From positions 17,472-81,471 of the forward strand of contig NZ_JBALWB010000006.1 of assembly GCF_036960155.1 (NCBI RefSeq): DNA of 64,000 nucleotides. Direction: 5' to 3'. This document shows positions 12,073 through 48,704 of this stretch, piece after piece. How positions within the stretch are numbered: the first letter of the stretch is position 1; each line of letters starts with the position of its first letter. Position numbers and translations under genes: made by a program. Origin of the DNA: Sulfitobacter sp. (lineage in GTDB: Bacteria; Pseudomonadota; Alphaproteobacteria; Rhodobacterales; Rhodobacteraceae). Below the pieces are notes generated by a model. That model was not told the origin of the DNA. It searched no databases and was given only the letters and a program-made list of their open reading frames with translations.

Positions 12073-12075
12073 GAA

Positions 12076-31706: not shown

Positions 31707-31836
31707 CTCAAATTCCTTCTGCTTGCCTTGTCTGGCACGCATAAGGTTACGTCCGGTTAGGGATTTATTTGCGCAAATCAGCAGGGGAACGCGACGAAAA
31801 TGATCGCCAAAGATGCGAACGCGTCAGCCAATCCGA

Positions 31837-34287
31837 CTATCCCAGCATACGTTCGCTCGTTGGATCATGAAATGGTGCGAGGCTTAGTTCGGCAACGATT
31901 TCTTTGCCTTCAACCATGACAGAGTATCGCCCCTGCGAAAGGCTGCCCCGGCCTGTGGCACCTTCTGAAAGCGAGACAAAGCACAATCCGACTGCGGCCC
32001 CGACTGTGTGCCCATAGGCTGCAGATGTGACATAGCCTGCGACTTTACCATCGCGCAGAACCGGTTCGTTGTGATGCAACATTGGCTCAGGGTCGCAGAG
32101 CTTGATTGAGCACAGAAATGGCCCCTCTGCTTGGGCTTTTCGCGCAAGATAGGCGTCGCGCCCGATGAAAGGGATGGCTTTGTTCGGCTTGCAGGCGAAA
32201 TCGAGGCCGATTTGGTGCGGGGCTTCAGTGTAGGCCATATCGTGGCCCCAATGAACAAAGCCTTTTTCGATGCGAAGCGCGTTTAGAGCTTCACCGCCAA
32301 TGAGGCGCAGACCGTGGTCTTTACCAGCATCCATGAGCGTGTCGAATACATGCTCCGCTAGGTCTGGTGTCACAAATATTTCCCAGCCGAGTTCGCCGGA
32401 GTAGGACAGTCTTTGAGCTGTTACCTTCGCATGTCCGATGTAAAAGGTTTGAAAGCTGTTGAACCGGAAGGCTTCATTCGACAGATCAATGTCGCAAACC
32501 GAGGCAAGCAGCGCGCGGGATTTTGGACCCATCAAGCCGAGGACACCGAATGAAGTGGTGACATCGCGCAAACGCACGTCTTCGCCTGCTTGAATCTGAT
32601 CGCGCAGGTGAATGTAGTCGCGCCGTGTGTGTGAAATCGAACTCATCACCATGAAACTGTCTTCGGCATGACGCGCGACTGTAACGTCGCTCTCGATCCC
32701 GCCGCGCTCATTGAGCATCAAGGTATAGGCAACGCGGCCCGTTTTCATCGACATATCATTGGTGCAGATGCGTTGCAGAAACGCTTCTGCATCCGTGCCC
32801 TCAACCATGAGTTTTCCGAGCATTGAATAATCGATCATCGCAGCGCTTTCGCGCGCGGCTTTTTGCTCGCCTTGGGCATAGTCGAACCAGTTCTGCCTGC
32901 CAAAGCTATAAGTGATCTCTGGCGTTACACCCTTGGGTGCAAACCAGCCCGGACGCTCCCAGCCTTGGGTTTCGGTGAAAAACGCGCCCTCGGCCTTCAA
33001 AGCGTGGTGAAACGGGGTGCGGCGCAGATTTCGTGCGGTTTCACGTTGGCGGTTCGGCCAGTGCATCGCGTAGGTGAGAACCAGCGTCTCGGGGCAGCGC
33101 TCCCGCAGGTAGATGTCGCGGGCCTGAAATTCTTCGCAGCGCTTTGGGTCCATCTCGGAGAGGTCGATTGGCGCGTGACCTTTCATGATCCACTCTGCCA
33201 AGGCTTTGCCAGCGCCAGGACCAGATTGAATACCAGTGGAATTGACCCCAGCGAGCACGAAGTAGCCCTTAATGTCTGGGGCTTCGCCCAAGGTAAAGCG
33301 GCCATCGTAGGAGTAGCTTTCAGGACCATTAAAGAAAGTGCGAATGCCTGTCTCTTGCAGCACAGGAACGCGCTCCATCGCAAGTTCCAGCACCTCCATA
33401 ACGTCCTCTTCAACAAAGGGCAGGCTGTCGAATTCAAAGCTCTGGGGAATGCCGTCTTTGGCCCATGCTTTGGCATGGAAATGGGCAAATCCGAACAGGA
33501 GCTTGCCTGCATCTTCCTTCCAATAGGTACCGTCGCAGTAGGAGCGCAGAACCGGTAGATCACTGGGTAAATCCTTGATCGCTTCGGTGACGAGGTAGTA
33601 ATGCTCGCAGGCATGAAGCGGGACGCCGACGCTATTTTGTTGGCCCAATTCGCGCGCCCACATGCCGCCACAGTTCACCACATAGTCGGCGGTAATTGTG
33701 CCTTGGTCTGTTCGCACGCCTTGCACTTTGCCATTTTCGACATGGACCTCTTCAACCTTGATGTTTTCAAGGATCGTCGCGCCGTGCATACGCGCCCCTT
33801 TGGCCAGCGCCATGGTCAGATCGATCGGATTGGCCGAGCCGTCACTGGGCATATGGATGCCGCCTAAAACGCCCTCGGGGTTCATCAAAGGCCAACGCTC
33901 GGAAATTTCCTCAGTGCTCATCAGGTGGGCTTCGACACCGAAAAGCGAGGCGAAATCAGCCTTGCGCTTAAGCTCTGCATGGCGCTCCGCGTTGAGGGCG
34001 ATGGAGATTGACCCGGATTGACGGAAACCGGGGTTCTGACCTGTTTCGGCTTCGATATCTTGCAAAAGTTCGACGCCGTATTTGGCAAAGGCAGTGGTGG
34101 AATGACTGCCCTGCAGTTGACCGACCAATCCTGCGGCGTGCCATGTGGTGCCAGAGGTGAGTTGCTTACGTTCTAGCAGGACCACGTCTTTCCACCCTTC
34201 GCGGGCCAGATGATAGGCGGTAGAGCAGCCGTGGATGCCGCCGCCGATAATGACAACTTGAGCGTGGGAGGGCAGTGTCTTAGCCAT
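31837..34287 (-). CDS. GcvT-family FAD/THF-dependent oxidoreductase (dimethylglycine/sarcosine dehydrogenase-like)
   Basis: IIGGGIHG, SGTTWHAAGL, C-terminal GcvT domain (YSGELGWEI, ALRIEKG). Confidence 0.95.
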   Translation of the reverse strand: MAKTLPSHAQVVIIGGGIHGCSTAYHLAREGWKDVVLLERKQLTSGTTWHAAGLVGQLQGSHSTTAFAKYGVELLQDIEAETGQNPGFRQSGSISIALNAERHAELKRKADFASLFGVEAHLMSTEEISERWPLMNPEGVLGGIHMPSDGSANPIDLTMALAKGARMHGATILENIKVEEVHVENGKVQGVRTDQGTITADYVVNCGGMWARELGQQNSVGVPLHACEHYYLVTEAIKDLPSDLPVLRSYCDGTYWKEDAGKLLFGFAHFHAKAWAKDGIPQSFEFDSLPFVEEDVMEVLELAMERVPVLQETGIRTFFNGPESYSYDGRFTLGEAPDIKGYFVLAGVNSTGIQSGPGAGKALAEWIMKGHAPIDLSEMDPKRCEEFQARDIYLRERCPETLVLTYAMHWPNRQRETARNLRRTPFHHALKAEGAFFTETQGWERPGWFAPKGVTPEITYSFGRQNWFDYAQGEQKAARESAAMIDYSMLGKLMVEGTDAEAFLQRICTNDMSMKTGRVAYTLMLNERGGIESDVTVARHAEDSFMVMSSISHTRRDYIHLRDQIQAGEDVRLRDVTTSFGVLGLMGPKSRALLASVCDIDLSNEAFRFNSFQTFYIGHAKVTAQRLSYSGELGWEIFVTPDLAEHVFDTLMDAGKDHGLRLIGGEALNALRIEKGFVHWGHDMAYTEAPHQIGLDFACKPNKAIPFIGRDAYLARKAQAEGPFLCSIKLCDPEPMLHHNEPVLRDGKVAGYVTSAAYGHTVGAAVGLCFVSLSEGATGRGSLSQGRYSVMVEGKEIVAELSLAPFHDPTSERMLG

Positions 34288-34298
34288 GATTTGGAGTC

Positions 34299-35060
34299 CT
34301 AGTGTTGGAACAGCTGGCCAGAATTGGCTGGCCTGTGATTAAGGTTTGCAAGCCGCATCAAATGCCAAGCGAGCGCTTGATTGCTGGAGATAACGGGCTT
34401 GGCGATATGGGCTTCGGCAAGGGCGATGACAGATAACGCACGCAGACTGGTGCATGAGACGAAGACAGCATCGCAATCGTCACGCGAACCGATGGTCTGG
34501 ATTGCGTTGAGAATACTGTCTGAGGTGATGCGGGCGACGATGAAGTCGTTGGACTGATTGAATGACGCGACAGCGTTGATGTCAAAACCAGCAGCTTTTA
34601 GGTTTGCTTGCATCTCGGTTGTCACATCGGGAGCATAGGGCGTGACCAGCGCGATACGTCTGATATCCAGAGCGGTGAGCGCGGCTTTGCAGGCGGTGAT
34701 CGGATTGCTGACTTGCGCGCCCGGATGAATTTCGCGGATGATCTGTGACACGCGTTCTTCGCCGATCATTGTAGCACCTGATGTGCAGCCGTAGCCGATC
34801 GCATCAAAGCCGAATTGGCTCGGCAGCAGGGCTGCGGTTTCAGGCAGATCATGCTGCATTTGGCGCAGCGTGTCGGGGGTGACATCCATAGAATTGGCGA
34901 TGCGCGCATGGTAACAGGCGATGCCTTCACCGTGCAGCAAGCTGGCCATTTCGTGCTCGATTGTTTGATCGGTTTGCAGGCAAATCAATCCGATCCGCGC
35001 AATATGACCTAGACCCGCATCGGTTTTGAATTCCAGCTTTTCGATGGATGCTTTATCCAT
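34299..35060 (-). CDS. Asp/Glu racemase / maleate-isomerase superfamily (EutA-like) 1
   Basis: GYGCTSG and FVSCTSL catalytic cysteines; PVISSNQA. Confidence 0.9.
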   Translation of the reverse strand: MDKASIEKLEFKTDAGLGHIARIGLICLQTDQTIEHEMASLLHGEGIACYHARIANSMDVTPDTLRQMQHDLPETAALLPSQFGFDAIGYGCTSGATMIGEERVSQIIREIHPGAQVSNPITACKAALTALDIRRIALVTPYAPDVTTEMQANLKAAGFDINAVASFNQSNDFIVARITSDSILNAIQTIGSRDDCDAVFVSCTSLRALSVIALAEAHIAKPVISSNQALAWHLMRLANLNHRPANSGQLFQH

Positions 35061-35257
35061 GGTCCGGCCTCTTTGAATAGCTCGTCGTTTCAGCCGCTTG
35101 TTGCGGTAATGGGGATAGATCGGACCTTTGTGCGTTCCGGGGACGACCTCGGGCGGGGTTCGCGGCATCTTCAAACATAAAGACACCCGTTTGCCAGAAT
35201 TCATCTTTCTGCGCCTGCGTGAGAATTGCCATGGTCGTTTCTCCATTAGAGTGCCAA

Positions 35258-35295
35258 CTGGTCTATACCAAATGATTCATCTTGGTATAGACCAG
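35258..35295. promoter_or_regulatory. Paired HutC/GntR-type operators forming a perfect 14-bp inverted repeat
   Basis: ctggtctataccaa-N10-ttggtatagaccag; each arm contains GTnTAnAC. Confidence 0.75.
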
Positions 35296-35337
35296 ATTTC
35301 GTGTTACTCAAAACAAAAAATTTGGGACTTACAAAAT

Positions 35338-36084
35338 ATGCCTGACGTTGCTGTAAAACTCTTTGACGATACGCCGAGATTTAGGCAGATTTTCGAAGCT
35401 TTGCGCGAAGAGATCACAAATGGAAATCTGGCGAAACACACAGCGCTGCCGTCCGAAAGAGTGGTTGCAGAAGCCTATAACGTCTCTCGTATGACGGCGC
35501 GCCGTGCCCTTGAGACGCTTGAGGCTGAGGGATTAAGCTATAGTCAGGGCCGCAAGGGACGTTTTGTTTCCCCGCCTCGATTGACATATGACATCAGCCA
35601 AATGGTCAGCTTTGCAGCCGATGCGCAGGCAAGCGGTGTGGATTTGCAGATTGAGGTGATCAAGGCAGAGCAACAAAATGCTGATGCGAAATTGGCCCGA
35701 GACTTGTTAGTGCAAATCGGGGAGCCGTTGCATGCTTACACACGATTGTTCAAGAACGATGGTCATGCGATTTTTATTGAAACCGAATTTGTAATTGCAG
35801 CACGATTTCCTGACCTGTTGAGTTATGACCTTCGACAATCGACCACCCAACTTTTAGGTGAGCACTTTGATACGCGTGCCCATACTGGCGATGTTGTCAT
35901 TCGGATGCGCGGGGTGCGTGTTGATGAGGCGAAACTACTGGGTTTGTCTGCAAATACCGCTGGCATCGAGTTGGAGCAGGTGATCCGCGACACCGCAGGC
36001 GTTCCGTTTTGCATTGGCCGTCAGATATGGCGTGGAGAATTGGCTGAATTTTCTGCACGAACAATGGTGAATCCCGAAGGCTAA
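35338..36084 (+). CDS. GntR (HutC/UTRA) regulator
   Basis: LPSERVVAEAYNVSRMTARRAL..QGRKGRFV; UTRA domain. Confidence 0.95.
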   Translation: MPDVAVKLFDDTPRFRQIFEALREEITNGNLAKHTALPSERVVAEAYNVSRMTARRALETLEAEGLSYSQGRKGRFVSPPRLTYDISQMVSFAADAQASGVDLQIEVIKAEQQNADAKLARDLLVQIGEPLHAYTRLFKNDGHAIFIETEFVIAARFPDLLSYDLRQSTTQLLGEHFDTRAHTGDVVIRMRGVRVDEAKLLGLSANTAGIELEQVIRDTAGVPFCIGRQIWRGELAEFSARTMVNPEG

Positions 36085-36238
36085 GATTCCTGTAAAAAGT
36101 TGCAATAGTGCGGACATTTTCCGAGAGCCGTCACAATGGCATCAAATTCTGCGTAATTTTATCGCGATCAGCCGCTTTTTTGACGCCTATTTTCGAGCTG
36201 TGCTCTTAAGTTAAGCGACAGATGAACAAGGATTTAAC

Positions 36239-37390
36239 ATGTGTGAGTTTCACAAAAATCTGACGGAGATGCGGCATGCATTTCACCGCGACCCCGAGCT
36301 TGGGTTTCAAGAAATTCGAACCAAGGCGGTGGTGGCTCGTCGTTTGCGTGATCTGGGCCTTGAAGTACATGAAGGCGTTGGCGTTGTTGGTGTTTTACGT
36401 GCGGGCGGTGGAAATAGGGCGATTGGGCTGCGCGCTGATATGGATGCACTGCCCATCACTGAAATCAGTGAACACGATTATGTGTCTGCCAATTCCGGCG
36501 TTATGCATGCTTGCGGTCATGACGGGCATATGACGATGTTGCTTGGCGCTGCAGAAACGCTGGCCAAAGATCCTGATTTTGACGGCACCGTAGTGTTCAT
36601 TTTTCAGCCGAACGAAGAACATGGGCTCGGCGCGCGCGCGATGATTGACGAGGGATTCTTGGAGAGGTTCGCGATTGATGAGGTCTATGCGATCCATAAT
36701 TTGCCCGGCGCGCCATTAGGGCAGCTGTCAACGCGTGTCGGTCAGATCTGCGCCAGCGAGAGCCTTTTTGAGATTGAGATCAAGGGGCAAGGTGGCCATG
36801 CATCTATGCCTCATGTCGGGGTGGACGCGATCACGGTCGGATCAGAGATGGTGCAGGCACTGCAAACGATAATTTCGCGCAAGCTTGCTCCGGGTGCAGG
36901 GGCGGTTGTATCTGTCACTGAATTTCTGACTGACGGGCAACGCAATGTACTGCCAGGACATGCAACGCTGAAAGGCGACGTGCGCGCACGCGTGCCCAAA
37001 GATCGCTTGGATATTGAGCGGTTCATGCGCCAGATTGTCGAGGGTGTTGCCGTCGCGCATGGGGTCAAGGCCAAGATGAGCTTTGTGACTGAATTCATCG
37101 AAACCATCAATGCACAAGGCCCTGTCGATGCAGTTGTTCGGTCCGCGCACGCCGCGGGGCTAGAGGCCATTGGTGATCGGCCTTCGATGAGCTTTTCCGA
37201 AGACTTTGCTCATTTCTGCGAAGCTGTTCCGGGCTGCTTTCTATTGCTCGGCAATGGGGAAACCGGCCCGCATGGCCAACCGTTGCATGCAGCGGATTAT
37301 GATTTTAACGATGCGCTTTTGCCTATCGGGGCTGCCTTTTGGGCCGAACTGGTTCGTGATCGTTTGCCAACTAGAGAGACCATGCCATGA
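36239..37390 (+). CDS. M20D amidohydrolase (hippurate hydrolase-like)
   Basis: LRADMDALP, MHACGHDGH, QPNEE, SEDF. Confidence 0.95.
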   Translation: MCEFHKNLTEMRHAFHRDPELGFQEIRTKAVVARRLRDLGLEVHEGVGVVGVLRAGGGNRAIGLRADMDALPITEISEHDYVSANSGVMHACGHDGHMTMLLGAAETLAKDPDFDGTVVFIFQPNEEHGLGARAMIDEGFLERFAIDEVYAIHNLPGAPLGQLSTRVGQICASESLFEIEIKGQGGHASMPHVGVDAITVGSEMVQALQTIISRKLAPGAGAVVSVTEFLTDGQRNVLPGHATLKGDVRARVPKDRLDIERFMRQIVEGVAVAHGVKAKMSFVTEFIETINAQGPVDAVVRSAHAAGLEAIGDRPSMSFSEDFAHFCEAVPGCFLLLGNGETGPHGQPLHAADYDFNDALLPIGAAFWAELVRDRLPTRETMP

Positions 37391-38580
37391 ATACTTTACT
37401 GCCATCCGTTATATTGGGCCATGTCGCGGCCAGCCGCAAAACTGGCGACGCAGCATTTCGGGTTTTGTCGACGAACGACTTTGCCACCGCGCGTGCTGAG
37501 ATCATGGCGTGGGACGGCTACGAGGCAACTCCGCTAGTGTCGCTGAGTGCTTTGGCTAAGGCGATCGGCGTCGGTGAAGTTCTGTACAAAGACGAAGGCC
37601 CCCGGTTTGGTTTGGGCAGTTTCAAAGCACTGGGCGGATCCTATGCTGCGTTGCGGGTGCTGCAACGCGTGATTTCTGAGCGGTTGGATCAGGACGTCTC
37701 GCTGGCTGATGTGCGCCAAGGCAAATACGCGGCGGAGTGCGCAGCGATCACCTTGGTTTCGGCGACCGACGGCAATCATGGCCGCTCACTGGCGTGGGGC
37801 TGCAAGCGGTTTGGTGTTCCCTGCCGAATCTACATCCATGCGGAAGTCAGTGAAGGGCGCGCAGTCGCCATGCAAGACCTCGGCGCTGAGGTCATTCGGA
37901 TCGAAGGGGACTACGACGCATCGGTCGCACTGGCAAAAAGTGAGGCCGAAGAAAACGGGTGGTTCGTGGTGTCGGACACTTCATGGCCGGGCTATTCGCT
38001 GCCGCCACGCGATGTGATGGCTGGTTATGGCGTGATGACACAGGAAATCTGTGAGGCACTGGAGCACGCGCCGACACATGTGTTCTTGCAGGGTGGCGTT
38101 GGTGGTTTGGCTGCGGGCGTTGCAGCGGGCTTGCGTCAATATTGGGGCGATGCGTCGCCGCGTGTGGTAATCGTTGAGCCGGACCTAGCGGCCTGTTTGT
38201 TTGAAAGCGGCAAGTCAGGAGACCCAACCAGTGTTGCAATAGCCAAAGAAACATTGATGGCGGGATTGTCTTGTGGTGAGCCGTCGCCATTAGCTTGGGA
38301 AATCTTGGAAGAAGAAGCCCGCGATTTTCTAACGATACCAGAAAATTTGGTTGCGCCTTGCGTGCGTCTTTTGGCTGCTCCTTTAGATGGCGATCCAGTG
38401 ATTGAAGCGGGCGAAAGCGCAATTGCGGGACTTGCGGCTTTGATCGCGGCCCGCACAGACAGCGCACTTTCCGAGAAGTTGGAACTTAACGCAAATTCGC
38501 GGGTATTATTGATTGGCTCCGAAGGCGTAACGGACAGAGCCATCTTCAACATGATCATGGAGGGTCGTGATGCAGCCTAA
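37387..38580 (+). CDS. dpaL: Diaminopropionate ammonia-lyase
   Basis: YKDEGPRFGLGSFKALGG, ATDGNHGR, VSDTSWPGY, QGGVGG, MAGLSCGEPS, GESAIAG. Confidence 0.92.
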   Translation: MNTLLPSVILGHVAASRKTGDAAFRVLSTNDFATARAEIMAWDGYEATPLVSLSALAKAIGVGEVLYKDEGPRFGLGSFKALGGSYAALRVLQRVISERLDQDVSLADVRQGKYAAECAAITLVSATDGNHGRSLAWGCKRFGVPCRIYIHAEVSEGRAVAMQDLGAEVIRIEGDYDASVALAKSEAEENGWFVVSDTSWPGYSLPPRDVMAGYGVMTQEICEALEHAPTHVFLQGGVGGLAAGVAAGLRQYWGDASPRVVIVEPDLAACLFESGKSGDPTSVAIAKETLMAGLSCGEPSPLAWEILEEEARDFLTIPENLVAPCVRLLAAPLDGDPVIEAGESAIAGLAALIAARTDSALSEKLELNANSRVLLIGSEGVTDRAIFNMIMEGRDAA

Positions 38581-39739
38581 AGAATTGATACGCGGATTTA
38601 GCACGGGCGAGTTTGAGACTCGAACAAAGAACGCTCAGGCGTTGATGGCGCAGCAAGGGCTGGCAGGCATGCTCTTGATGAGCGAGCCGGACGTTCGTTA
38701 TTTTAGCGGGTTCCAAACGCTGTTCTGGCAAAGCCCGACGCGACCATGGTTTTTGTTTGTGCCGGCTCAAGGCAAGCCCATTGCGGTTATCCCTGAGATC
38801 GGGGCTGCGTTGATGCGGCAATCTTGGTTGGAAGATATCCGCACGTGGAGCGCGCCTGCTCCAGAAGATGATGGTATCAGTTTGCTGACAGAACTGCTCT
38901 CTCCCTTGGCTGCTGGCAAAGCGCGGATTGGGGTAATGAAAGGGCACGAGACATTGCTGCGAATGCCCTTGGGAGACTGGGAACGTCTGATTGCCGGATT
39001 GCCGGGGCTGGAAATTGCAGATGTCACAGGACTGGTTCAAGGCCTGCGCATGGTAAAGTCCCCTGCAGAAATCGTGAAGCTTTCACATATTTGCGGCATT
39101 GGATCGGCAACATTCGCGCGTGTGCCTGAAATAATGTCGGAAGGTATGGCGCTGGAGGATGTGTTTCGCACGTTCCGACGTGAAGCATTGGGGCAGGGGG
39201 CAGATGATGCGCCCTATGTTGTGGGTGCTGCGGATCAGGGTGGCTATGTCGATGTGATCTCACCGCCGTCGCGCCGTCCTTTGCAATCTGGTGATGTGCT
39301 GATGCTGGATACGGGTCTGACTTGGGATGGGTATTTCTGTGACTTTGATCGCAACTGGGCGATTGGCCGCGCGGATGATGCAGCGCGTCGTGCCTATGAT
39401 GTACTGTGGCGCGCAACCGAAGCAGGAATTGCCGCTGCGCGGCCCGGAAATACTTGCCGTGATCTGTTCAATGTCATGTCAGCGGTGATTTCCGAATTGG
39501 ACGACAGTGGCGGAGACATTGGTCGTTTGGGTCATGGGCTGGGAATGCAACTGACCGAGCAACCGTCACATGCAGCGTTTGACACAACTGTGTTGACAGA
39601 GAATATGGTGCTTACGTTAGAGCCATCCCTGTCTTACGGCGATGGCTTGATGATGGTGCATGAGGAGAACATTGTCGTCGGCGCGGATTCTGCGCGGCTT
39701 TTGACAACGCGGGCCGCACCTGAATTGCCAGTGATCTAA
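38570..39739 (+). CDS. M24 (Xaa-Pro peptidase/creatinase-like, EutD/DoeA-like) hydrolase
   Basis: LRMVKSPAEI, DTGLTWDGYFCDFDR, GHGLG, LEP, HEE. Confidence 0.9.
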   Translation: MQPKELIRGFSTGEFETRTKNAQALMAQQGLAGMLLMSEPDVRYFSGFQTLFWQSPTRPWFLFVPAQGKPIAVIPEIGAALMRQSWLEDIRTWSAPAPEDDGISLLTELLSPLAAGKARIGVMKGHETLLRMPLGDWERLIAGLPGLEIADVTGLVQGLRMVKSPAEIVKLSHICGIGSATFARVPEIMSEGMALEDVFRTFRREALGQGADDAPYVVGAADQGGYVDVISPPSRRPLQSGDVLMLDTGLTWDGYFCDFDRNWAIGRADDAARRAYDVLWRATEAGIAAARPGNTCRDLFNVMSAVISELDDSGGDIGRLGHGLGMQLTEQPSHAAFDTTVLTENMVLTLEPSLSYGDGLMMVHEENIVVGADSARLLTTRAAPELPVI

Positions 39740-39753
39740 ACAGGAGCCGGCCG

Positions 39754-40125
39754 TTGGATAAATATAAACCCGGTGACGATGTAGGGCGGTTGGATTTCTG
39801 GTCCTTTGAGGCGCCAGCAAGCGAATATCGCGTCACCAAGGGTGATCCCAAGACCTACGGGCGCATTGATGCGGGCGGTCCGGGTCACACAACGCGCTAT
39901 GGAATTTGGCGCTGCACGGTTGGCGCGTTTGACTGTATCGAGCAGGGCGATGAGTTGATGACGGTGCTTTCTGGTCGATGCAAATTGATCCAGCACGACA
40001 CTGGTGAAACCCGCGATCTTGGACCCGGTGATAGCCTGTTTGTGCGTGATGGCAGTCGGGTCACATGGGATGTCAGCGCAGACATTACCAAGGTATTTTT
40101 TGGCCACAAAGCCACAGGATACTAG
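39754..40125 (+). CDS. Cupin_3 (DUF861/EutQ-like) protein
   Basis: GIWRCTVG..DELMTVLSG..PGDSLFV..WDV; TTG start after AGGAG. Confidence 0.85.
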   Translation: MDKYKPGDDVGRLDFWSFEAPASEYRVTKGDPKTYGRIDAGGPGHTTRYGIWRCTVGAFDCIEQGDELMTVLSGRCKLIQHDTGETRDLGPGDSLFVRDGSRVTWDVSADITKVFFGHKATGY

Positions 40126-40910
40126 GGCAGAAGCGATGTACCAGTGTGTTGGAATATCTGACCAAAGCCGGTCAATTGATCGGTGATTCCGGCTCGGCGC
40201 AGGCAACTCCAGAATAGCGCCTGATTGGACGTAACCACAGGTTTTCCAACAGCTTGCTCAATCTCTTCAACGACTTCAAGCGCGCGGATGCCGCTGCAGG
40301 ACAGGAAAATCACATCAGCGTCAGGGTGATCAATCTCGAGCGCAAACTTTTTCCAATAGGCGGGTGTGACCTGACCAAATTCCAAGCCCGTTTCGAGGTT
40401 GAGGCCCTGAATATCGAGGATGTCGAACCCTTTCTCGATCAAGAAATCAGCCTCGGCTGAATTGATCTCATCCAGATAGGGCGTGCCAACCACAAGTTTT
40501 TGCGCCCCCAATTCGCGCAACGCATCGACAACGCCAGTAACGAGGCACATCGGCTGGGTCCATGGCGCGCCCTTTGTAATTTCTGCGAATACACGGTCCT
40601 CACCATTCACAATCGACCCGCTGGTACACGTATAGCTGATCACCTTGGGTTTCATATCCGGTTGCAGGCGCCCAGCGGCCTCGGCCATGTGGTCGATGTG
40701 CCGCGCGAGAGTCTCTTTCGTTGTGTAATCTTCGGTCTTAAGGCGAGTGATATGAACACCAACACCCTCGGGTGCCATGTCAAAGAAGTCCTGCTCTGCT
40801 GCCAGATCAGTAGACATCAGTATAAAGCCAAGTTGCGCCCTGTCGTGGCGCCCACCGTCCATTTCAGGGACCCGGGCTTTGGACGCGATAACATCACCAG
40901 ATTTGTACAT
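40122..40910 (-). CDS. Asp/Glu racemase / maleate-isomerase superfamily (EutA-like) 2
   Basis: SYTCTSG and FLSCSGI; PVVTSNQA. Confidence 0.9.
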   Translation of the reverse strand: MYKSGDVIASKARVPEMDGGRHDRAQLGFILMSTDLAAEQDFFDMAPEGVGVHITRLKTEDYTTKETLARHIDHMAEAAGRLQPDMKPKVISYTCTSGSIVNGEDRVFAEITKGAPWTQPMCLVTGVVDALRELGAQKLVVGTPYLDEINSAEADFLIEKGFDILDIQGLNLETGLEFGQVTPAYWKKFALEIDHPDADVIFLSCSGIRALEVVEEIEQAVGKPVVTSNQALFWSCLRRAGITDQLTGFGQIFQHTGTSLLP

Positions 40911-40931
40911 ATTGGTGTCCTTTTTGGCGCT

Positions 40932-41747
40932 CTACACGGCCTCTTTCACGGCGCTCAAGAACTGTTGAGTGCGCTCTCGTTGCGGATTGCCAAACAATTC
41001 GGCAGGTGGACCTTGCTCTTCGATCTTACCGTCATAGAAGAAACAGACCCGGTCGGAGATATCACGGGCAAACCCCATTTGGTGCGTCACCATAAGCATC
41101 GTCAGATTATGTTCAGAGACCAGCTTGCGGATAACGTTTGTCACCTCCCCGATCACTTCGGGATCAAGCGCGGACGTGACTTCGTCAAATAACATCACCT
41201 TGGGGCGCATCGCCAATGCACGCGCAATCGCGACCCGCTGTTGTTGACCACCAGAGAGGCGAGACGGGTGCTGATCTTTCTTTTCCGCCATACCGACCAA
41301 CTCAAGAAGTTCTTCACCACGGTCTCGTGCTTCGGCCTTTGACATGCCGAGAACCTGAACAGGGCCCTCCATACAGTTCTGGATTGCCGTCATGTGTGGG
41401 AACAGATTGAAATGTTGGAAACACATGCCAATGTCAGTGCGGCGTTCACGCAGGTGACGTTCATTGGCTAGAACCAATTCCCCGCCTTTCTCCATATGGG
41501 TCAGTGGTTTGCCATCCACATAGATGACGCCGCCGTTGATCTTCTCAAGCGTCATGAGCATCCGCAAAACAGTCGTCTTGCCTGAACCCGATGGTCCAAT
41601 AACCGAAACCATTTCGCCTGCTGCAACGTCCAAATCAAGGTCGTCCAAAACCACCAGCGAATCGTAGGCTTTGCGCACTTTCTTAAAGCTGACCATCGGT
41701 TTGTTGTCGCCCGTAATCTCGGCCGGGAAACCTGACAAATCTTCCAT
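40932..41747 (-). CDS. ehuA: Ectoine/hydroxyectoine-type polar amino acid ABC ATPase
   Basis: GPSGSGKTTVLRMLMTLE, LSGGQQQR, FDEVTSALDPE. Confidence 0.85.
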   Translation of the reverse strand: MEDLSGFPAEITGDNKPMVSFKKVRKAYDSLVVLDDLDLDVAAGEMVSVIGPSGSGKTTVLRMLMTLEKINGGVIYVDGKPLTHMEKGGELVLANERHLRERRTDIGMCFQHFNLFPHMTAIQNCMEGPVQVLGMSKAEARDRGEELLELVGMAEKKDQHPSRLSGGQQQRVAIARALAMRPKVMLFDEVTSALDPEVIGEVTNVIRKLVSEHNLTMLMVTHQMGFARDISDRVCFFYDGKIEEQGPPAELFGNPQRERTQQFLSAVKEAV

Positions 41748-41750
41748 TTC

Positions 41751-42449
41751 TTACATTCCTAATTTGCGGCGCACGAAGTTTTCGAATGCGCGGATAAGGC
41801 CAGCGGCGGGTAGGGAAAGGGCCAAAAAGATAATACCAACAATTGTGTATGCTTCTAGGTAGCGCCAAGTCTCTGAACCAATCGAATTAGCGGTGTGGAT
41901 AAGTTCGGCAACGCCAATTACCGAAAGCATCGGGGTATCTTTGAAAATGCCTACAAGGTAGTTACCCATGCCCGGAATGGCTGGTGGGATCGCCTGTGGA
42001 ATGATCAACCGCCTGTATGTCTGCACGGTTGTCATGTTCAACGCGGTCGCCGCTTCCCACTGGCCTTTTGGCACAGAATCCAGACCACCCCGGTAGACTT
42101 CGGACAGGTAGCAGGAATAATGCAAACCAATGGCGATCATACCTGACACCCAAGGACTGAGCGTAATTCCAAACTGGGGCCCGACGTAGAATATGAAGAA
42201 TATCTGCAACAAGAGCGGCGTCGATCGAACAAACTCAACAAACTCGCGGACAACAAAGGTCAGAACCTTGCTGTCGCTGCGCTGCGCGAGGGCAAAAACC
42301 AACCCAAGCACGAGTGCGATAAGATATCCCGCTGCCGCAGCAATCAGCGTATTTACCGTGGCCTCAAGCAGGCGAGGAAGAATTCCCCAAGCGTAATCCC
42401 ATCGCCAATCAAACTTTGGGAACCAAGGTTCATTAAACCATTCAAACAT
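41751..42449 (-). CDS. ehuD: Ehu-type ABC permease
   Basis: FDWRWDYAW.., EFVRSTPLL, YRGGLDSVPKGQWEAA. Confidence 0.85.
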   Translation of the reverse strand: MFEWFNEPWFPKFDWRWDYAWGILPRLLEATVNTLIAAAAGYLIALVLGLVFALAQRSDSKVLTFVVREFVEFVRSTPLLLQIFFIFYVGPQFGITLSPWVSGMIAIGLHYSCYLSEVYRGGLDSVPKGQWEAATALNMTTVQTYRRLIIPQAIPPAIPGMGNYLVGIFKDTPMLSVIGVAELIHTANSIGSETWRYLEAYTIVGIIFLALSLPAAGLIRAFENFVRRKLGM

Positions 42450-42452
42450 GGA

Positions 42453-43118
42453 TCATGTCCTCCCCAGTTTTCGGGCCATAAAGCCCTCAAGCCAACGCAT
42501 GAATGGGGTCAGCATAAAGCGGGCCAATATGTAGTAGATGATCAATGCCGTGCCAAAGATTTGGGCCGACATATAGGTGCTTGCGTTGATCTGCTTGGCT
42601 TGGAACATCAAATCGGTGACAGAGATGAGCGATACAAGGGCAGTACCCTTCAAAATTTCGACCATCAGGTTGCCCCATGCGGGAAGCATATTCACCAGCG
42701 CTTGCGGAAGAATAATACGCCACATCCGCCGTGCAGAACTCATGTTGATCGCAGTTGCTGCTTCCCATTGACCTTTTGGGACAGACATAATGCCACCGCG
42801 CACCAGCTCGGCGCCATAAGCGCCCGCATTCAATCCAATAGCAACCCAACCGGCTGTGAACTTTTCTAAGGTTAATCCGAAGAGCGGGAGAACAAAGAAG
42901 ATCCAATAAAGCTGCACCAACAACGACGTGCCGCGAAAGAGCTCAATATACGTGACAGCAGAACCCATGATAAATTTGTTCGATGACATTTTCATCAATC
43001 CGAACACCAGCGCCAAGAAGACTGTCAGTGCCGCCCCCAACAGGAACTGAGCGACAGTGATCCCGGTTCCTGATAATAGAAGCGGCCAGTATTGGCTTAA
43101 GAAATCAAAAAGACTCAT
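42453..43118 (-). CDS. ehuC: Ehu-type ABC permease
   Basis: YIELFRGTSLLVQLYW, NAGAYGAELVRG; start MSLFDF. Confidence 0.85.
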   Translation of the reverse strand: MSLFDFLSQYWPLLLSGTGITVAQFLLGAALTVFLALVFGLMKMSSNKFIMGSAVTYIELFRGTSLLVQLYWIFFVLPLFGLTLEKFTAGWVAIGLNAGAYGAELVRGGIMSVPKGQWEAATAINMSSARRMWRIILPQALVNMLPAWGNLMVEILKGTALVSLISVTDLMFQAKQINASTYMSAQIFGTALIIYYILARFMLTPFMRWLEGFMARKLGRT

Positions 43119-43198
43119 ATGTGCGTGCGAACCTTTGCTATTTAAGAAAAGTGGCAGGCCAATTTGGCCTACCACTTCGATTTAGTAGTGCTAATCGA

Positions 43199-44041
43199 TT
43201 AGCGGTTTTCGCATGCCCACTGAGCTGTCGTGTCTCCTGGGAGGTGATCAACGCCATACTCATGCTCAGCGACTTTCGCCATCATCTCGTCTGTGCCGAT
43301 GTAACCGGCAAGTGCTTCGTTAAAGCCAGCGAGGAAGTCTTGGTCTTCGTGACGGAAGCCAATGCCAGCAAAGTTCTTGCTCCAGATCGGCATCAATGAA
43401 TTGTCGCCGAGCTCGATTTCATCATGATCGTTAGCGAGATGGGATGCTTCGAAGTATGTCAAAATCGCTGCATCCGCGCGGCCAGCTTTCAAAGCCGCGA
43501 CCATTTCCGTTGGGCCAGGCACCTGCATCAAGTGAGCATCGTCGATACCGACTTTCTTTGCCGCTTCAACAGTGTTGTAACCAGCGCCCGTCACCATAAT
43601 ATGGCCACCGCTCAGAACGTCAGCATAATTGTTGATGTTCTTTGGATTTCCAGCGGGAACCAAAACAGCATCACCAGCTTTTGCAACCGGAGTTGAGAAC
43701 GAGACGTTTTCACAACGGGAACCGAGAATATACATGCCACCAGTGATCAGGTCAAAACGCTCGGCCTTCAGTCCTGGGATCAATCCACCCCAATCACCAA
43801 CAACGGCTTCGATGTTTGTCAGGCCCATCTTAGCGAGAGTTTCGACTGCGATGTCGTTCGTGAAGCCGTCGGCATTACCATTCTCATCTGGATAACCCCA
43901 GAGTGGGATGTTGGCAAAACCGATACGAATGGTTTCACCGGCGTCAATCCGGTCTTGCAGTGGGCCCGCGAGGACAGATGATGCGGTTGTCGCGAGGGCG
44001 AAACCGGCTGCGATTAGGGTTTTTGTGACGTTCATTGACAT
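43199..44041 (-). CDS. ehuB: Ehu-type solute-binding protein (family 3)
   Basis: Signal peptide; IRIGFAN, WGGLIPGLKAERFDLITGGMYI..RC; ligand not established. Confidence 0.8.
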   Translation of the reverse strand: MSMNVTKTLIAAGFALATTASSVLAGPLQDRIDAGETIRIGFANIPLWGYPDENGNADGFTNDIAVETLAKMGLTNIEAVVGDWGGLIPGLKAERFDLITGGMYILGSRCENVSFSTPVAKAGDAVLVPAGNPKNINNYADVLSGGHIMVTGAGYNTVEAAKKVGIDDAHLMQVPGPTEMVAALKAGRADAAILTYFEASHLANDHDEIELGDNSLMPIWSKNFAGIGFRHEDQDFLAGFNEALAGYIGTDEMMAKVAEHEYGVDHLPGDTTAQWACENR

Positions 44042-44293
44042 TATTTCCTCCTTGATATTGTTGCGATGGGCAGGCGCCTTTTTTGCGCCTTTTCCCGGAT
44101 GTTTGATGGGGGGTTCCTCGCACCAAAGCTGCTGCTCAGGCACCAAAGATCTCTGGATTTTGACGTTCTTAGACTTCAACTCCCCAATTTCTGACTTCGA
44201 CTCTAATGCCGATAGAGGACGTTTTTCGTCAATATTTGGTCATACTCGACTAATTTGATTGCCATTACCAAAATAGTCGATCAAAATCAGATC

Positions 44294-44743
44294 ATGGATG
44301 AAAAAGACATAGAGATTCTTAGACTGGTTCAGACCGATGCCCGACTGACTGCTGAGGCTATTGGTTTTGAAATTGGATTGTCGCCACCGGCAGTCCAAAA
44401 ACGACTTAAAAAACTACGCGAGACAGGTGTAATTGAGAAAGAGATCGCAGTGCTTTCCTCTGCCAAATTGGGCCGAGGGATGACTGTGATTGTCCAAGTC
44501 ATGCTGGAACGCGAAAGCCGCAGGCATCTTGATGCGTTCAAACGCAGAATGCGTGCGGCGCCTGCTGTGCAGCAATGCTACTACGCCACAGGCGAGGCAG
44601 ATCTTATCCTTGTCGTTATCGTAAAAGACATCGTCGAATACGAGGAATTTACCCAAGAGTACTTCTTCGATGAATCGAATGTGAGTAAATTCACATCATC
44701 AATCGTGATGGACCGGGTCAAGGTTTCGCTCGATATCATTTGA
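44294..44743 (+). CDS. Lrp/AsnC-family regulator
   Basis: MDEKDIEILRLVQTDAR..GLSPPAVQKRLKKLRETGVI. Confidence 0.95.
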   Translation: MDEKDIEILRLVQTDARLTAEAIGFEIGLSPPAVQKRLKKLRETGVIEKEIAVLSSAKLGRGMTVIVQVMLERESRRHLDAFKRRMRAAPAVQQCYYATGEADLILVVIVKDIVEYEEFTQEYFFDESNVSKFTSSIVMDRVKVSLDII

Positions 44744-44751
44744 ACAATGCG

Positions 44752-44791
44752 TTGAAGCCGTTTCACCCAACGTAAGGATAAACGGCTTCAA
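44752..44791. terminator. 12-bp inverted repeat between convergent genes
   Basis: ttgaagccgttt-N16-aaacggcttcaa. Confidence 0.65.
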
Positions 44792-44808
44792 ACTGAAGGC
44801 GCTGCCAT

Positions 44809-45150
44809 TCAGGAATAAGCAGCGTACACAATGAACTCGACTTTGTAATCAGGGCGCGCGAGCTTTGCTTCGCCGCAGGCGCGCGCGGGGGCGTGGCCAC
44901 TTGGAACCCATTCGTTCCAAGCTTCGTTAAGCCCGTCAAAATCTGCCATATCGGCTAACCAGATCGTAACCCGCAACAGGTTTTCACGTGAAGATCCGGC
45001 CTTGAGCAAGAGCGCATCAATATTGGTCAGGCAGGCTTTAACTTGGTCCTGAATAGTCTCGCCTTCGGCAACCTGGCCTGTGAGATAGGCCACGCCATTG
45101 TGCTTCACAATTTTGGAAGAGCGTTGCCCAGTTTCAATGCGTTCGATCAT
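44809..45150 (-). CDS. RidA/YjgF-family (YoaB-like) imine deaminase
   Basis: YLTGQVA, IWLADMADF..NEAW, PARAC (catalytic Arg), KVEF. Confidence 0.92.
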   Translation of the reverse strand: MIERIETGQRSSKIVKHNGVAYLTGQVAEGETIQDQVKACLTNIDALLLKAGSSRENLLRVTIWLADMADFDGLNEAWNEWVPSGHAPARACGEAKLARPDYKVEFIVYAAYS

Positions 45151-45263
45151 GTTCGTTCCTAGCTTGTATCTATCATCTGCTGAGTACGTCAGCGACGCCG
45201 GACTTATGGACATACAGCAATAATTAAGGCAAACGTAATATTATTGAATATAATTCAGGGAAA

Positions 45264-46166
45264 TTGAAGTTGGCTATCAAGATCGAAATGCTCAGATGTT
45301 TCACCATGGTTGCGCTGCACGGCAGCCTCTCTGATGCGGCGGACGCGCTTGGGCGCACGCCCTCCGCTGTGTCGATGATGCTGAAACAATTTGAAGATCA
45401 TGTCGGTTCTCCACTGTTTGAGACGGCGCGCAAGTCACGACTGACCCCAATCGGGGGTCTGATCTACGAGGAAGCTCGTCGTGAGGTGGCGCATTTTGAA
45501 AACACTGTTTCAGTTATCGAGGGCCTGTCAAAATCAGAACTTGGCTATTTGCGCCTTGCGGTTACGCCATCTGTTGCAACAACCATATTGCCGACGATAA
45601 TCCACCGGTTCTGTCAGATGTACCCAGAGGTTCGAATTGATATTCGAGATATGGACTCCGCTGCAATAGCGCGCGATCTAGAACGAGAGCAAGCTGACGT
45701 CGGCATCGGAACACTGCCAAAGATTGACGGGATGAACCGCGTTGAACTGTTCAGTGACCCCTTTGGTGTAGTGTGCCGCAAAGACCATTCACTCGCTCAA
45801 AATTGGGATCAGCTTTCGTGGCAGGACATGGATGAATATGTGCTTATCGCGAATGGCTTGTGCAAGTTGATTACTGATCCTGGCTTTGCGCCTATCCTTG
45901 ACAAGTCTCGGCTTATGGTTCGCAATACTACGTCCCTGATGGGTTTGGTGCGCGAGGGTGTCGGTATAACAATATTGCCGCGCTTAGCCGTCACGGGTCC
46001 GCAAGACAACATCGCGTTTTTGCCGCTGAAGGACGTAAATACAAAGCGGACTGTTCATCTGGTTTCGCAGCCTCAGAATTTCCTGATGCCAGCGGCCAGA
46101 GCGTTCCTAAAACTTATCACATCAATGATCCACGAAGGCGCGTTAGGGGTGGATAAGGAAATTTAG
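45264..46166 (+). CDS. LysR-family regulator
   Basis: GSLSDAADALGRTPSAVSMMLKQFE. Confidence 0.95.
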   Translation: MKLAIKIEMLRCFTMVALHGSLSDAADALGRTPSAVSMMLKQFEDHVGSPLFETARKSRLTPIGGLIYEEARREVAHFENTVSVIEGLSKSELGYLRLAVTPSVATTILPTIIHRFCQMYPEVRIDIRDMDSAAIARDLEREQADVGIGTLPKIDGMNRVELFSDPFGVVCRKDHSLAQNWDQLSWQDMDEYVLIANGLCKLITDPGFAPILDKSRLMVRNTTSLMGLVREGVGITILPRLAVTGPQDNIAFLPLKDVNTKRTVHLVSQPQNFLMPAARAFLKLITSMIHEGALGVDKEI

Positions 46167-48696: not shown

Positions 48697-48704
48697 AGAT
48701 AAAT

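Follow-up and report, generated by a model that had tools for sequence, protein, structure and literature searches.

A putative IS6-bracketed, horizontally acquired marine catabolic island directed at a solute other than ectoine

Known clusters for ectoine catabolism combine an Ehu-type ABC importer, followed by a eutA-like gene, with an M24-family hydrolase, a deacylase, a PLP enzyme of fold type II and regulators of the Lrp/AsnC family and the GntR superfamily. M20 deacetylases occur in variant ectoine clusters: NCBIfam has a model for one (DoeB2), and in Bacillaceae abgB stands in for eutE. The YgeY–YgeX pair, an M20 hydrolase and a 2,3-diaminopropionate (DAP) ammonia-lyase (DAPAL), belongs to the lower reductive urate/2,8-dioxopurine pathway of E. 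coli and Clostridia, in which ureido-DAP is converted to DAP and then to pyruvate; it provides a precedent for an M20–DAPAL step, and pathways of this type are the sole established physiological role of DAPAL (PMC12507026; bioRxiv 10.1101/2025.04.24.650524). DmpXWV, encoded in the SPO2436–2443 locus of Ruegeria pomeroyi DSS-3, imports DMSP, for which its Kd is 1.1 μM (PMC10030565). SPO2441 of the same organism is induced 16-fold by a diatom, and SPO2436–2440 go unmentioned in the main text of the literature searched.

The locus described here lies in a 64,000-nucleotide stretch of Sulfitobacter DNA (the window). Family assignments, made by Pfam and NCBIfam profile scans, gave the following features.

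25312–26214, no strand: IS6-family element, left copy (903-nt arm)
27849–30233, minus: BisC-family cytoplasmic molybdopterin S-/N-oxide reductase (TIGR00509, 894 bits)
30234–31742, minus: 502-aa fold-type-II PLP protein, distantly CysK-like (Pfam PALP, 35.9 bits)
31837–34287, minus: DMGDH/sarcosine-dehydrogenase-type FAD and folate (GcvT) N-demethylase (DAO, FAO_M, GCV_T, GCV_T_C)
34299–35060, minus: EutA-like two-cysteine racemase/isomerase 1, Amdase family (TIGR02990, 182 bits; cut-off 318)
35259–35294, no strand: HutC/DasR-type operator half-palindrome pair in the divergent promoter
35338–36084, plus: GntR/UTRA regulator, HutC subfamily (GntR and UTRA domains)
36239–37390, plus: M20 amidohydrolase, N-acyl-amino-acid hydrolase type (TIGR01891, 305 bits; cut-off 154)
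37387–38580, plus: DAPAL (NF006058, 473 bits; cut-off 276)
38567–39739, plus: M24 binuclear metallohydrolase, prolidase-like (Pfam Creatinase_N and M24)
39754–40125, plus: small Cupin_3 (DUF861/EutQ-like) protein (Pfam, 58 bits)
40122–40910, minus: EutA-like two-cysteine racemase/isomerase 2 (TIGR02990, 178 bits; cut-off 318)
40932–41747, minus: EhuA ATPase (399 bits; equivalog cut-off 345)
41751–42449, minus: EhuD permease (284 bits; equivalog cut-off 205)
42453–43175, minus: EhuC permease (238 bits; equivalog cut-off 197)
43199–44041, minus: Ehu-derived periplasmic binding protein (TIGR02995, 161 bits; cut-off 191)
44294–44743, plus: Lrp/AsnC regulator (Pfam domains)
44809–45213, minus: Rid protein (Pfam/NCBIfam scans)
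53067–53969, no strand: IS6-family element, right copy (inverted), counterpart of the left arm

The scans recovered every gene named in the preliminary description and bore out the absences it had reported, the region from 27.8 to 45.3 kb containing no EutB, EutC (OCD), EutE/DoeB (AstE_AspA) or class-III (DABA) transaminase. The Rid protein, which had been counted as part of the cluster, is syntenic with it in none of 80 relatives and was removed. The cupin, the 502-aa CysK-like PLP enzyme and the BisC-type molybdenum reductase, three genes that the description had overlooked, are further members of the island.

The components listed above for ectoine clusters all have counterparts here, but the binding protein does not reach the EhuB cut-off and its pocket is altered, the deacylase is an M20 enzyme rather than one of the AstE/AspA type, EutC is absent, and the M24 protein is prolidase-like and bears a metal site. 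The set ends in a DAP ammonia-lyase rather than a DABA transaminase and semialdehyde dehydrogenase, the regulator is of the HutC type rather than a MocR-type EnuR, and a DMGDH-type demethylase is additional. As with YgeY–YgeX, an M20 hydrolase adjoins DAPAL and, in the reading proposed below, the pair would likewise release DAP from an N-substituted form and yield pyruvate and ammonia; in contrast, the island M20 is of another subfamily (TIGR01891), XdhD, YgfK, SsnA, HyuA, YgeW and YqeA are missing, the hosts are aerobic marine bacteria, and the pair is linked to compatible-solute-type importers, the M24 gene, racemases and an N-demethylase. The SPO2436–2443 locus contains orthologues of the M24 (SPO2440, 82% identity), DMGDH-like (SPO2436, 76%), EutA-like 1 (SPO2437, 69%) and GntR (59%) proteins, and it shares the island's operator and divergent arrangement. 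It differs in having the OpuAC-type DmpXWV as importer and a PhyH-type Fe/2OG oxygenase, and in lacking M20, DAPAL, cupin, EutA-like 2 and Lrp genes.

The island is flanked by two inverted IS6 copies, whose arms are 99% complementary, have GGCTCTGTCGCAAA as terminal repeats and match annotated IS6 transposase genes of roseobacter plasmids; it was not found in 24 other sampled species of the genus. The gene set also occurs on a Roseovarius pelagicus plasmid and, with the genes reordered, the full set was present in at least 10 of the 80 loci fetched from relatives (compare L041 with the window), its hosts being Rhodobacterales, Geminicoccales, Hyphomicrobiales and gammaproteobacterial Granulosicoccaceae, together with roseobacter plasmids. 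The reading that we favour, at a probability of about 0.5, is that the window contains a widespread marine catabolic island, in a copy that was acquired horizontally and is bracketed by IS6 elements, and that its solute is small and cationic, bears a carboxylate and is not ectoine.

Gene coupling was counted in 81 loci with an M24 orthologue. The commonest core is M20–DAPAL–M24, syntenic in 45 of 81; M20 and DAPAL genes were present in 45–46, Lrp in 29 (minimal M20–DAPAL–M24–Lrp units included), DMGDH in 23 and Ehu in 12. Of the 45 loci with M20, 43 have DAPAL in synteny with it, and the two genes also stay together where they lie away from M24; M20–DAPAL was found elsewhere in genomes whose M24 gene has no adjoining DAPAL, in one case fused to a second DMGDH copy. 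Across 201 genomes the lyase occurred in 14, every one of which also had the M24 gene (Fisher p = 9e-17), the two being unlinked in four. The grouping goes far beyond chance and is a real, conserved unit, with M24 as its hub gene. DAPAL was missing from seven of 21 M24-positive genomes, which means that what M24 produces does not always pass through DAP. In many genomes the M24 orthologue is solitary, among unrelated neighbours, or accompanied by the demethylase but not by DAPAL, arrangements accounted for by neither of the two substrates put forward in the preliminary description, a five-membered ectoine homologue and BMAA. In other genomes the Ehu-type importer is exchanged for orthologues of DmpXWV; in the eight loci with OpuAC, the genes for the demethylase and the racemase are always there too, provided that the locus reaches far enough.

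EhuA, EhuC and EhuD each exceed their equivalog cut-offs, whereas the binding protein does not, and it matches S. meliloti EhuB (2Q88) with only 74 bits. In the alignment it reads I, W, W, Y and R at EhuB positions E21, F24, Y60, F80 and R85, which we take to be the ectoine-contacting residues (reportedly described by Hanekop et al. in 2007), and this set is invariant in 13 binding proteins, namely that of the window and all 12 cluster-linked orthologues. To judge from sequence, the importer is Ehu-derived with an altered ligand pocket, in which the retained arginine and aromatic cage, with isoleucine in place of glutamate, would fit a cation that has no N–H donor, such as an N-methylated one.

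The M20 and DAPAL genes share 4 nt, the DAPAL and M24 genes likewise overlap, and M20–DAPAL–M24 are translationally coupled. The lyase matches E. coli YgeX (4D9G) with 249 bits and keeps the counterparts of Lys77 (FKALGG), Asp120 (TDGNHG) and Asp189 (VVSDTSW); with its score above the DAPAL equivalog cut-off and its coupling to M24, these residues uphold the earlier view that the pathway ends at DAP. Against the DoeA model (cut-off 613) the M24 enzyme scores 44 bits, and its identity to the DoeA of the same genome is 27%; it retains all five metal ligands (D, D, H, E, E), which that DoeA has lost. Xaa-Pro dipeptidases are the structures closest to it, and from its sequence it looks like a peptide-bond metallohydrolase rather than a cyclic-amidine hydrolase. 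It thus lies outside the DoeA lineage, which reduces the proposed ectoine-like ring opening to a family-level analogy. M20 deacetylases are known from variant ectoine clusters, and the replacement of EutE by M20 (DoeB2 model, 314 bits, cut-off 550; CpsA, 293, cut-off 500) is therefore not by itself a mark of new chemistry.

The DMGDH-like enzyme gives full-length matches of ~450 bits to rat and human DMGDH and to Arthrobacter DMGO, and it has the same four-domain architecture as DMGDH, SARDH and DMGO. Unlike theirs, its context is without betaine or choline genes, and its presumed substrate is an N-methyl amine that is neither dimethylglycine nor sarcosine. Its operon is extended by the gene for the 502-aa PLP protein and, with a 0-nt gap, by the BisC-type gene, the last of the operon; the latter is syntenic in only two of 80 relatives (L020 and L029) and is an accessory gene. 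The PLP protein scores 66 bits against the cysK model (cut-off 351) and its best PDB matches are cysteine synthases (≤57 bits); orthologues at 75–88% carry only the name 'pyridoxal-phosphate dependent enzyme', and the gene adjoins the DMGDH-like gene in 10 loci. EutA-like 1, with maleate isomerases as nearest structures, has both catalytic cysteine motifs (GYGCTSG and VSCTSL); those of EutA-like 2, encoded by the last gene of the importer operon and syntenic with ehu genes in 17 loci, read SYTCTSG and LSCSGI. The cupin, whose sequence has no histidine metal motifs, is encoded 3' of M24 in 17 loci (61–89% identity).

The operator half-palindromes TGGTCTATACCA lie inverted between the demethylase operon and the GntR–M20–DAPAL–M24 operon and are the only intergenic sites in the window with one mismatch or fewer. 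Of 25 loci, 22 carry TGGTATATACCA upstream of the orthologous GntR gene and have no other copy of it, and the predicted GntR operator is accordingly a conserved one. The Lrp gene is divergent from the importer operon.

A reshaped importer, two metal-dependent hydrolases, a DAP lyase and an N-demethylase are joined in a widespread marine island, which therefore probably consumes a small nitrogen-rich compound of the ocean. In the pathway that we propose, the Ehu-derived importer would bring in the solute, isoleucine replacing the EhuB glutamate that binds the ectoine ring N–H while the arginine for the carboxylate and the aromatic cage are kept. The two EutA-like enzymes may adjust stereochemistry, the M24 and M20 enzymes would cleave two C–N bonds to give DAP, and DAPAL would convert this to pyruvate and two NH4+. 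The DMGDH-like enzyme would move the N-methyl group or groups to the folate pool, acting ahead of hydrolysis or on an N-methyl-DAP intermediate, and the units would be controlled by the HutC-type GntR protein, through TGGTMTATACCA operators, and by Lrp. The PLP, cupin and BisC-type proteins have no role in this model. The class of substrate that fits best is a small carboxylate zwitterion of compatible-solute size, a cyclic or N-acylated DAP derivative, N-methylated or plain, and the solute is probably N-methylated; the five-ring ectoine homologue and BMAA may belong here. We know of no natural DAP-based compatible solute.

A special case of this explanation, merging the two earlier proposals, would make the substrate 2-methyl-2-imidazoline-4-carboxylate or its N-methylated form, with M24 opening the ring, M20 deacetylating and the demethylase converting N-methyl-DAP (BMAA) to DAP for the lyase. 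It parallels the DoeA/DoeB logic step by step, some ectoine clusters do have M20 deacetylases instead of EutE, the ehuBCDA–eutA-like unit is derived from ectoine modules, loss of the pocket glutamate suits an N-methylated ring nitrogen, and genome G042 holds an M20–DAPAL–DMGDH operon. We nevertheless consider it doubtful, since the only occurrence of the compound known to us is as a synthetic analogue of ectoine, M24 is unlike DoeA in keeping a peptidase-type metal site, trios without M20 exist, and M24 frequently occurs without DAPAL.

Somewhat less probable still is that the hydrolases work side by side on substituted DAPs with an open chain (albizziine-like compounds such as ureido-, guanidino- or N-acyl-DAP) or on small peptides containing DAP or N-methyl-amino acids, with M24 as a prolidase-type amidase, M20 as a carbamoylase or carboxypeptidase, and both supplying DAP to the lyase. 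The conversion of albizziin to pyruvate by E. coli YgeY and YgeX, the complete binuclear site of M24 and its nearest structural matches, Xaa-Pro dipeptidases, the minimal M20–DAPAL–M24–Lrp units without a dedicated importer, and the solitary M24 genes, suggestive of a general amidase, all agree with it; but the island M20 is not of the YgeY type and has none of SsnA, HyuA, YgeW or XdhD nearby, the dedicated importers are of compatible-solute (Ehu, OpuAC) rather than peptide types, and the racemases and demethylase are left unexplained.

The island might instead be a mosaic of independent modules with different substrates (importer and racemase; demethylase operon; M20–DAPAL–M24 unit) joined on mobile DNA. 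Each module is also seen without the others, the island is IS6-bounded here and plasmid-borne elsewhere, there are two different regulators and the Rid gene is unlinked. However, the modules have stayed together through several rearrangements and across at least four bacterial orders, M24 belongs to the GntR operon whether or not M20–DAPAL is there, the conserved operator stands between the demethylase operon and the GntR operon, and DAPAL is confined to the M24-positive set, which makes a mosaic improbable. That the island is just a variant of ectoine/hydroxyectoine uptake and catabolism is, in line with the preliminary description, very improbable: the Ehu scores (PGAP names ehuACD on the R. 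pelagicus plasmid), the EutA-like genes and Lrp/AsnC regulators typical of eut clusters and a genome without a higher-scoring EhuB-like protein favour it, but the EhuB, EutA, DoeA, DoeA2 and DoeB2 models all score below cut-off, there is no route from DABA to aspartate, the pocket glutamate is replaced, M24 keeps a metal site unlike that of DoeA, and the true, canonical DoeA and DoeB and a transaminase are encoded elsewhere in the same genome.

As to gene starts, ATG 44041 of the binding protein is preceded by AAGGAGG, ATG 35060 is the likely start of EutA-like 1, and ATG 35338 gives a GntR protein of 248 aa, as in its orthologues.

The genes of the cluster were called from an open reading frame listing together with Pfam and NCBIfam scans, the start codons being refined afterwards, and form three tightly packed transcription units with two regulators.

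Genes of the cluster and its immediate flank
27849-30233, minus strand: BisC-family reductase, demethylase operon
30234-31742, minus strand: PLP-502, a 502-aa CysK-like PLP protein, demethylase operon
31837-34287, minus strand: DMGDH-type FAD/GcvT enzyme, demethylase operon
34299-35060, minus strand: EutA-like protein 1, demethylase operon
35338-36084, plus strand: GntR/UTRA regulator, M24 operon
36239-37390, plus strand: M20 enzyme, M24 operon
37387-38580, plus strand: 2,3-diaminopropionate (DAP) ammonia-lyase (DAPAL), M24 operon
38567-39739, plus strand: M24 enzyme, M24 operon
39754-40125, plus strand: Cupin_3 protein, M24 operon
44041-40122, minus strand: importer operon (EhuB-like protein, EhuC, EhuD, EhuA, EutA-like protein 2)
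44294-44743, divergent from the importer operon: Lrp regulator
44809-45213, after the Lrp gene: Rid protein

Every gene named in the preliminary description was found in the window by the same listing and scans, and the cluster also contains genes absent from it, encoding the cupin, PLP-502 and the BisC-family reductase. In the plus-strand operon the M20 gene overlaps that of DAPAL, which in turn overlaps the M24 gene. The DMGDH-like enzyme has the architecture of the DMGDH/SARDH family, with FAD (DAO) and FAO_M domains, a GcvT folate domain and a C-terminal barrel, and a homologue search with PLP-502 returned generic names only.

The cluster had been proposed to serve a purpose other than ectoine catabolism, and comparison with the ectoine-pathway families agreed: the EhuB-like protein, both EutA-like proteins, M24 and M20 miss the cut-offs, and the true DoeA and DoeB are encoded on another contig. 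M24 scored 43.7 bits against DoeA/EutD (TIGR02993, cut-off 613) and 40.4 bits against DoeA2 (NF038259, cut-off 575), M20 scored 314 bits against DoeB2 (NF038260, cut-off 550), no better than against its generic subfamily, and the two EutA-like proteins scored about 180 bits each (cut-off 318). No AstE/AspA-type protein (DoeB/EutE, TIGR02994) was found in the cluster, and Pfam and NCBIfam scans of 27.8-45.3 kb detected neither the DABA transaminase nor the aspartate-semialdehyde dehydrogenase family (Atf/Ssd, DoeD/DoeC). The canonical set, comprising DoeA (620 bits, cut-off 613), DoeB (531 bits, cut-off 403) and a class-III aminotransferase alongside, lies elsewhere in the host genome, at G000:C23:926370-930080 (8373-12078 of the fetched locus L109). 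The ORFs scanned near this set included no eutABC, the 20 kb fetched showed no ORF of transporter size, and no EhuB above the cut-off was found anywhere in the host genome. Plain ectoine use by the cluster, whose importer parts EhuA (399 bits, cut-off 345), EhuC (238, cut-off 197) and EhuD (284, cut-off 205) do pass their equivalog cut-offs, is the least likely of the explanations considered.

The lyase passed two DAPAL equivalog models (NF006058, 473 bits against a cut-off of 276; TIGR01747, 275 against 274), scored 316 bits against TIGR03528, below the cut-off of 532, and matched E. coli YgeX (4D9G) with 249 bits. In the alignment, the catalytic Lys77, Asp120 and Asp189 of YgeX are conserved in the window's lyase and its orthologues, and the equivalog scores predict a DAPAL that has kept its catalytic residues. 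DAPAL has only one established role in physiology, as the final enzyme of the reductive urate pathway, in which the M20 enzyme YgeY releases DAP from ureido-DAP (PMC12507026; bioRxiv 10.1101/2025.04.24.650524). In contrast to the lower module of that pathway, the window's M20 is of the TIGR01891 type, a different subfamily from YgeY, and Pfam and NCBIfam scans for further reductive-urate genes (YgeW/UacY, HyuA, SsnA) found no Amidohydro_1 or OTCace protein in the cluster.

M24 consists of a Creatinase_N domain and a pita-bread domain with five metal ligands (D, D, H, E and E, in the motifs LMLDTG, CDFDR, GHGLG, TLEPS and VHEEN). It is 27% identical to the DoeA of the host genome, in which the columns at the metal ligands read E, S, Y, M and E. 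The nearest solved structures are PepE and the prolidases (Xaa-Pro dipeptidases), none of which scores above 98 bits; creatinase and DoeA are much more distant, and M24 falls far under every NCBIfam Xaa-Pro peptidase equivalog cut-off (PepQ, for example, 78 bits against 630). Assignment as a creatinase was rejected on a score of only 47 bits and on the presence of metal ligands that creatinase does not have; a DddP-like DMSP lyase was rejected when no DddP structure matched at E<1e-5. The His motifs of a Ddd-type cupin lyase are missing from the cupin.

Close relatives of M24 number in the thousands in a homologue search, all of them generically named. We mapped the window proteins onto 80 genome loci with an M24 orthologue at 74-90% identity and, with the Ruegeria pomeroyi locus added, counted the genes next to M24.

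Genes next to M24, at an identity of at least 50%, in 81 loci
DAPAL: 46/81
M20: 45/81
Lrp: 29/81
GntR: 25/81
EutA-like 1: 24/81
DMGDH-like: 23/81
PhyH-type oxygenase (gene absent from the window's genome): 20/81
Cupin: 17/81
EutA-like 2: 17/81
Ehu importer: 12/81
PLP-502: 10/81
OpuAC-type importer: 8/81
BisC: 2/81
Rid: 0/81

The Rid protein, previously suggested to quench the aminoacrylate of the pathway, showed no synteny with the cluster in the 80 related loci (a counterpart alongside in 0/80), and so probably plays no part in the DAP pathway. In the window this RidA-family gene sits between the Lrp gene and LysR of the neighbouring operon.

Three layouts recur around M24. The minimal layout is an importer-free M20-DAPAL-M24-Lrp arrangement, as in Roseobacter sp. 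MED193 and Phaeobacter; the R. pomeroyi layout has PhyH, EutA-like 1 and DMGDH on one side and GntR, M24 and an OpuAC importer on the other; and the full Ehu layout of the window occurs, with varied gene order, in Rhodobacterales, Geminicoccales, a Hyphomicrobiales MAG and an unclassified alphaproteobacterial MAG. Gammaproteobacterial MAGs of the Granulosicoccaceae carry M24 orthologues (74-80% identity) that are mostly solitary or arranged as in R. pomeroyi. Where M24 has no adjacent DAPAL, an M20-DAPAL pair was found at a separate site in the genome, and one such pair precedes a second DMGDH copy. Among 201 genomes of Ruegeria's family, an M24 orthologue was present in 21 and DAPAL in 14, the two being adjacent in 10 of these 14 (Fisher p = 9e-17 for co-occurrence, uncorrected for phylogeny). 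All 14 DAPAL carriers have M24, but 7 of the 21 M24 carriers are without DAPAL, and M24 is therefore the hub, with DAPAL depending on it rather than the reverse. Some M24 genes are solitary among unrelated genes, and neighbour analysis of the 'M24-only' loci gave no consistent partner genes.

The EhuB-like binding protein scored 160.9 bits against EhuB (TIGR02995, cut-off 190.9). Aligned to S. meliloti EhuB (2Q88), it reads I21, W24, W60, Y80 and R85 in place of E, F, Y, F and R, residues that we take to be the ectoine contacts of EhuB and whose roles were reportedly described by Hanekop et al. in 2007. The five residues are identical in 12 cluster-linked orthologues, except for V in place of I in one. 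The pocket is predicted to keep the carboxylate-binding Arg and an aromatic cage and to have lost the acidic acceptor for the ring N-H, a loss that fits a cation without an N-H donor.

The divergent promoter contains, at 35259-35294, two inverted copies of TGGTCTATACCA, a predicted GntR operator pair (TGGTMTATACCA) that has the form of a DasR/HutC-type operator. In 22 of 25 loci TGGTATATACCA lies upstream of the orthologous GntR gene, and these 25 loci contain it at no other position. As the operator lies between both units, one repressor would join the demethylase operon and the GntR-(M20-DAPAL)-M24 operon.

In R. pomeroyi DSS-3 the orthologues are AAV95690-95694 (SPO2436-2440 if counted back from SPO2441, AAV95695), directly beside SPO2441-2443. 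These last are DmpXWV, an importer whose binding protein has a Kd for DMSP of 1.1 uM and very little affinity for betaine, choline, carnitine or TMAO (PMC10030565). That an Ehu-type importer gives way to a DMSP-binding OpuAC-type one beside the same enzymes suggests a small onium carboxylate as substrate. SPO2441 is up 16-fold in diatom co-culture. We found no main-text mention of SPO2437-2440 in the literature searched, SPO2436 and SPO2440 are not named in two papers that name SPO2441, and the supplementary tables of the R. pomeroyi papers examined hold no data on SPO2436-2440. Searches for literature on DAP ammonia-lyase with ectoine, on DoeB2 and on SPO2437-2442 returned nothing relevant.

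Two inverted 903-nt IS6-family copies (25312-26214 and 53067-53969, 99% complementary), with IS26-like terminal repeats GGCTCTGTCGCAAA, bracket 26.9 kb containing the cluster and a LysR-ALDH-M19-BCCT operon, the arrangement of an IS6-family compound element in which two copies flank passenger DNA. No matching 8-bp target-site duplication was seen in the flanks of this segment, and neither IS6 copy contains an ORF of at least 150 aa. Between the left copy and the BisC gene lies a truncated Cys/Met-metabolism PLP enzyme (26548-27339; profile positions 84-317 of 381), probably a remnant cut during assembly of the segment. An M24 orthologue was found in 0 of 24 other species of the genus, which have only a paralogue of 50-56% identity. 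In Roseovarius pelagicus, Phaeobacter sp. G2 and Aliiroseovarius crassostreae the cluster is carried on plasmids, under generic PGAP names only. On the Roseovarius plasmid (NZ_CP106737.1, 208-233 kb; locus L113), a second Xaa-Pro peptidase family gene and a LysR gene lie past ehuA, and a Rieske oxygenase alpha subunit gene with a RidA gene and GcvA lies ~7 kb downstream.

The families, synteny, phyletic coupling, pocket change, operator and mobility are direct observations. The boldest reading, to which we give a probability of about one in four, is that the island and its relatives catabolise an undescribed, widespread marine zwitterion built on DAP, for which Ehu and OpuAC uptake arose independently; candidates are an N-methylated 2-imidazoline-4-carboxylate (five-ring, ectoine-like) or a precursor or conjugate of N-methyl-DAP, the algal toxin BMAA. 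In our preferred, more general scheme, a small, probably N-methylated, carboxylate zwitterion would be imported and then stereochemically adjusted, M24 and M20 would trim it to DAP, the DMGDH-like enzyme would carry out demethylation, and DAPAL would convert DAP to pyruvate and ammonia. The preliminary description had offered a five-ring ectoine homologue and BMAA as alternatives, and the two can be merged, an N-methyl imidazoline carboxylate giving N-acyl-BMAA, then BMAA, then DAP. Reasons for caution with this merged scheme are the peptidase-like site of M24, the genomes with M24 only, and the genes for PLP-502, cupin and BisC, which it leaves unexplained. Rival readings are that the hydrolases work in parallel on small peptides or on substituted DAPs with an open chain, and that the region is a mosaic of separate modules, the latter to be set against the operator shared by two of the units. 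Norzooanemonin and other imidazolium betaines, N-beta-methylated DAP betaines, cyclic guanidine or urea derivatives of DAP, and pterin- or purine-derived DAP were weighed as substrates and not adopted.

Roseobacters and their relatives handle much of the dissolved organic nitrogen released by phytoplankton, and many of the molecules they exchange lack known genes, just as many conserved gene clusters lack a known molecule. The present cluster is conserved in several orders and mobile (plasmids, IS6 flanks). In R. pomeroyi it is linked to the diatom-induced transporter, yet every gene is generically named. If the DAP-zwitterion reading is true, it reveals a new natural compatible solute or an algal-toxin sink, and the first physiological role for DAP ammonia-lyase under aerobic conditions. 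Knowing the substrate would bring a further compound and pathway into the accounts of marine carbon and nitrogen, place DAP ammonia-lyase outside anaerobic purine breakdown, show the retuning of an ectoine importer for a new ligand and, should BMAA-type compounds be involved, indicate that an algal neurotoxin has a biological sink. With cultured hosts and an arrayed mutant library of R. pomeroyi available, the substrate question is directly testable.

A paralogous operon, conserved in the genus, lies at G000:C31:31500-37900 of the host genome (5079-11322 of locus L017) and is found in related species. It encodes TetR, then a 2Fe-2S protein, a Mo-hydroxylase large subunit, a 212-aa protein of no assigned family, a DAPAL-like PLP enzyme with Asp120 changed to Ala, an M24 protein 52% identical to the window's and an EutA-like protein. 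The association of a lyase with M24 and a racemase may be old and reused.

The neighbouring operon (45264-52963) encodes LysR, an aldehyde dehydrogenase, an M19 peptidase, a 585-aa protein without a Pfam hit, DUF3726 and a BCCT transporter. In outline, by gene types only, it resembles the homarine operon, which comprises HomR, HomD (ALDH), HomC (peptidase), HomA/B and a betaine-type transporter (PMC13236597). Homarine catabolism was rejected for the cluster itself, because the published hom operon is SPO3188-3192, not SPO2436-2440. Parts of the 45264-52963 operon adjoin M24 clusters in two of the related loci (L030 and L093).
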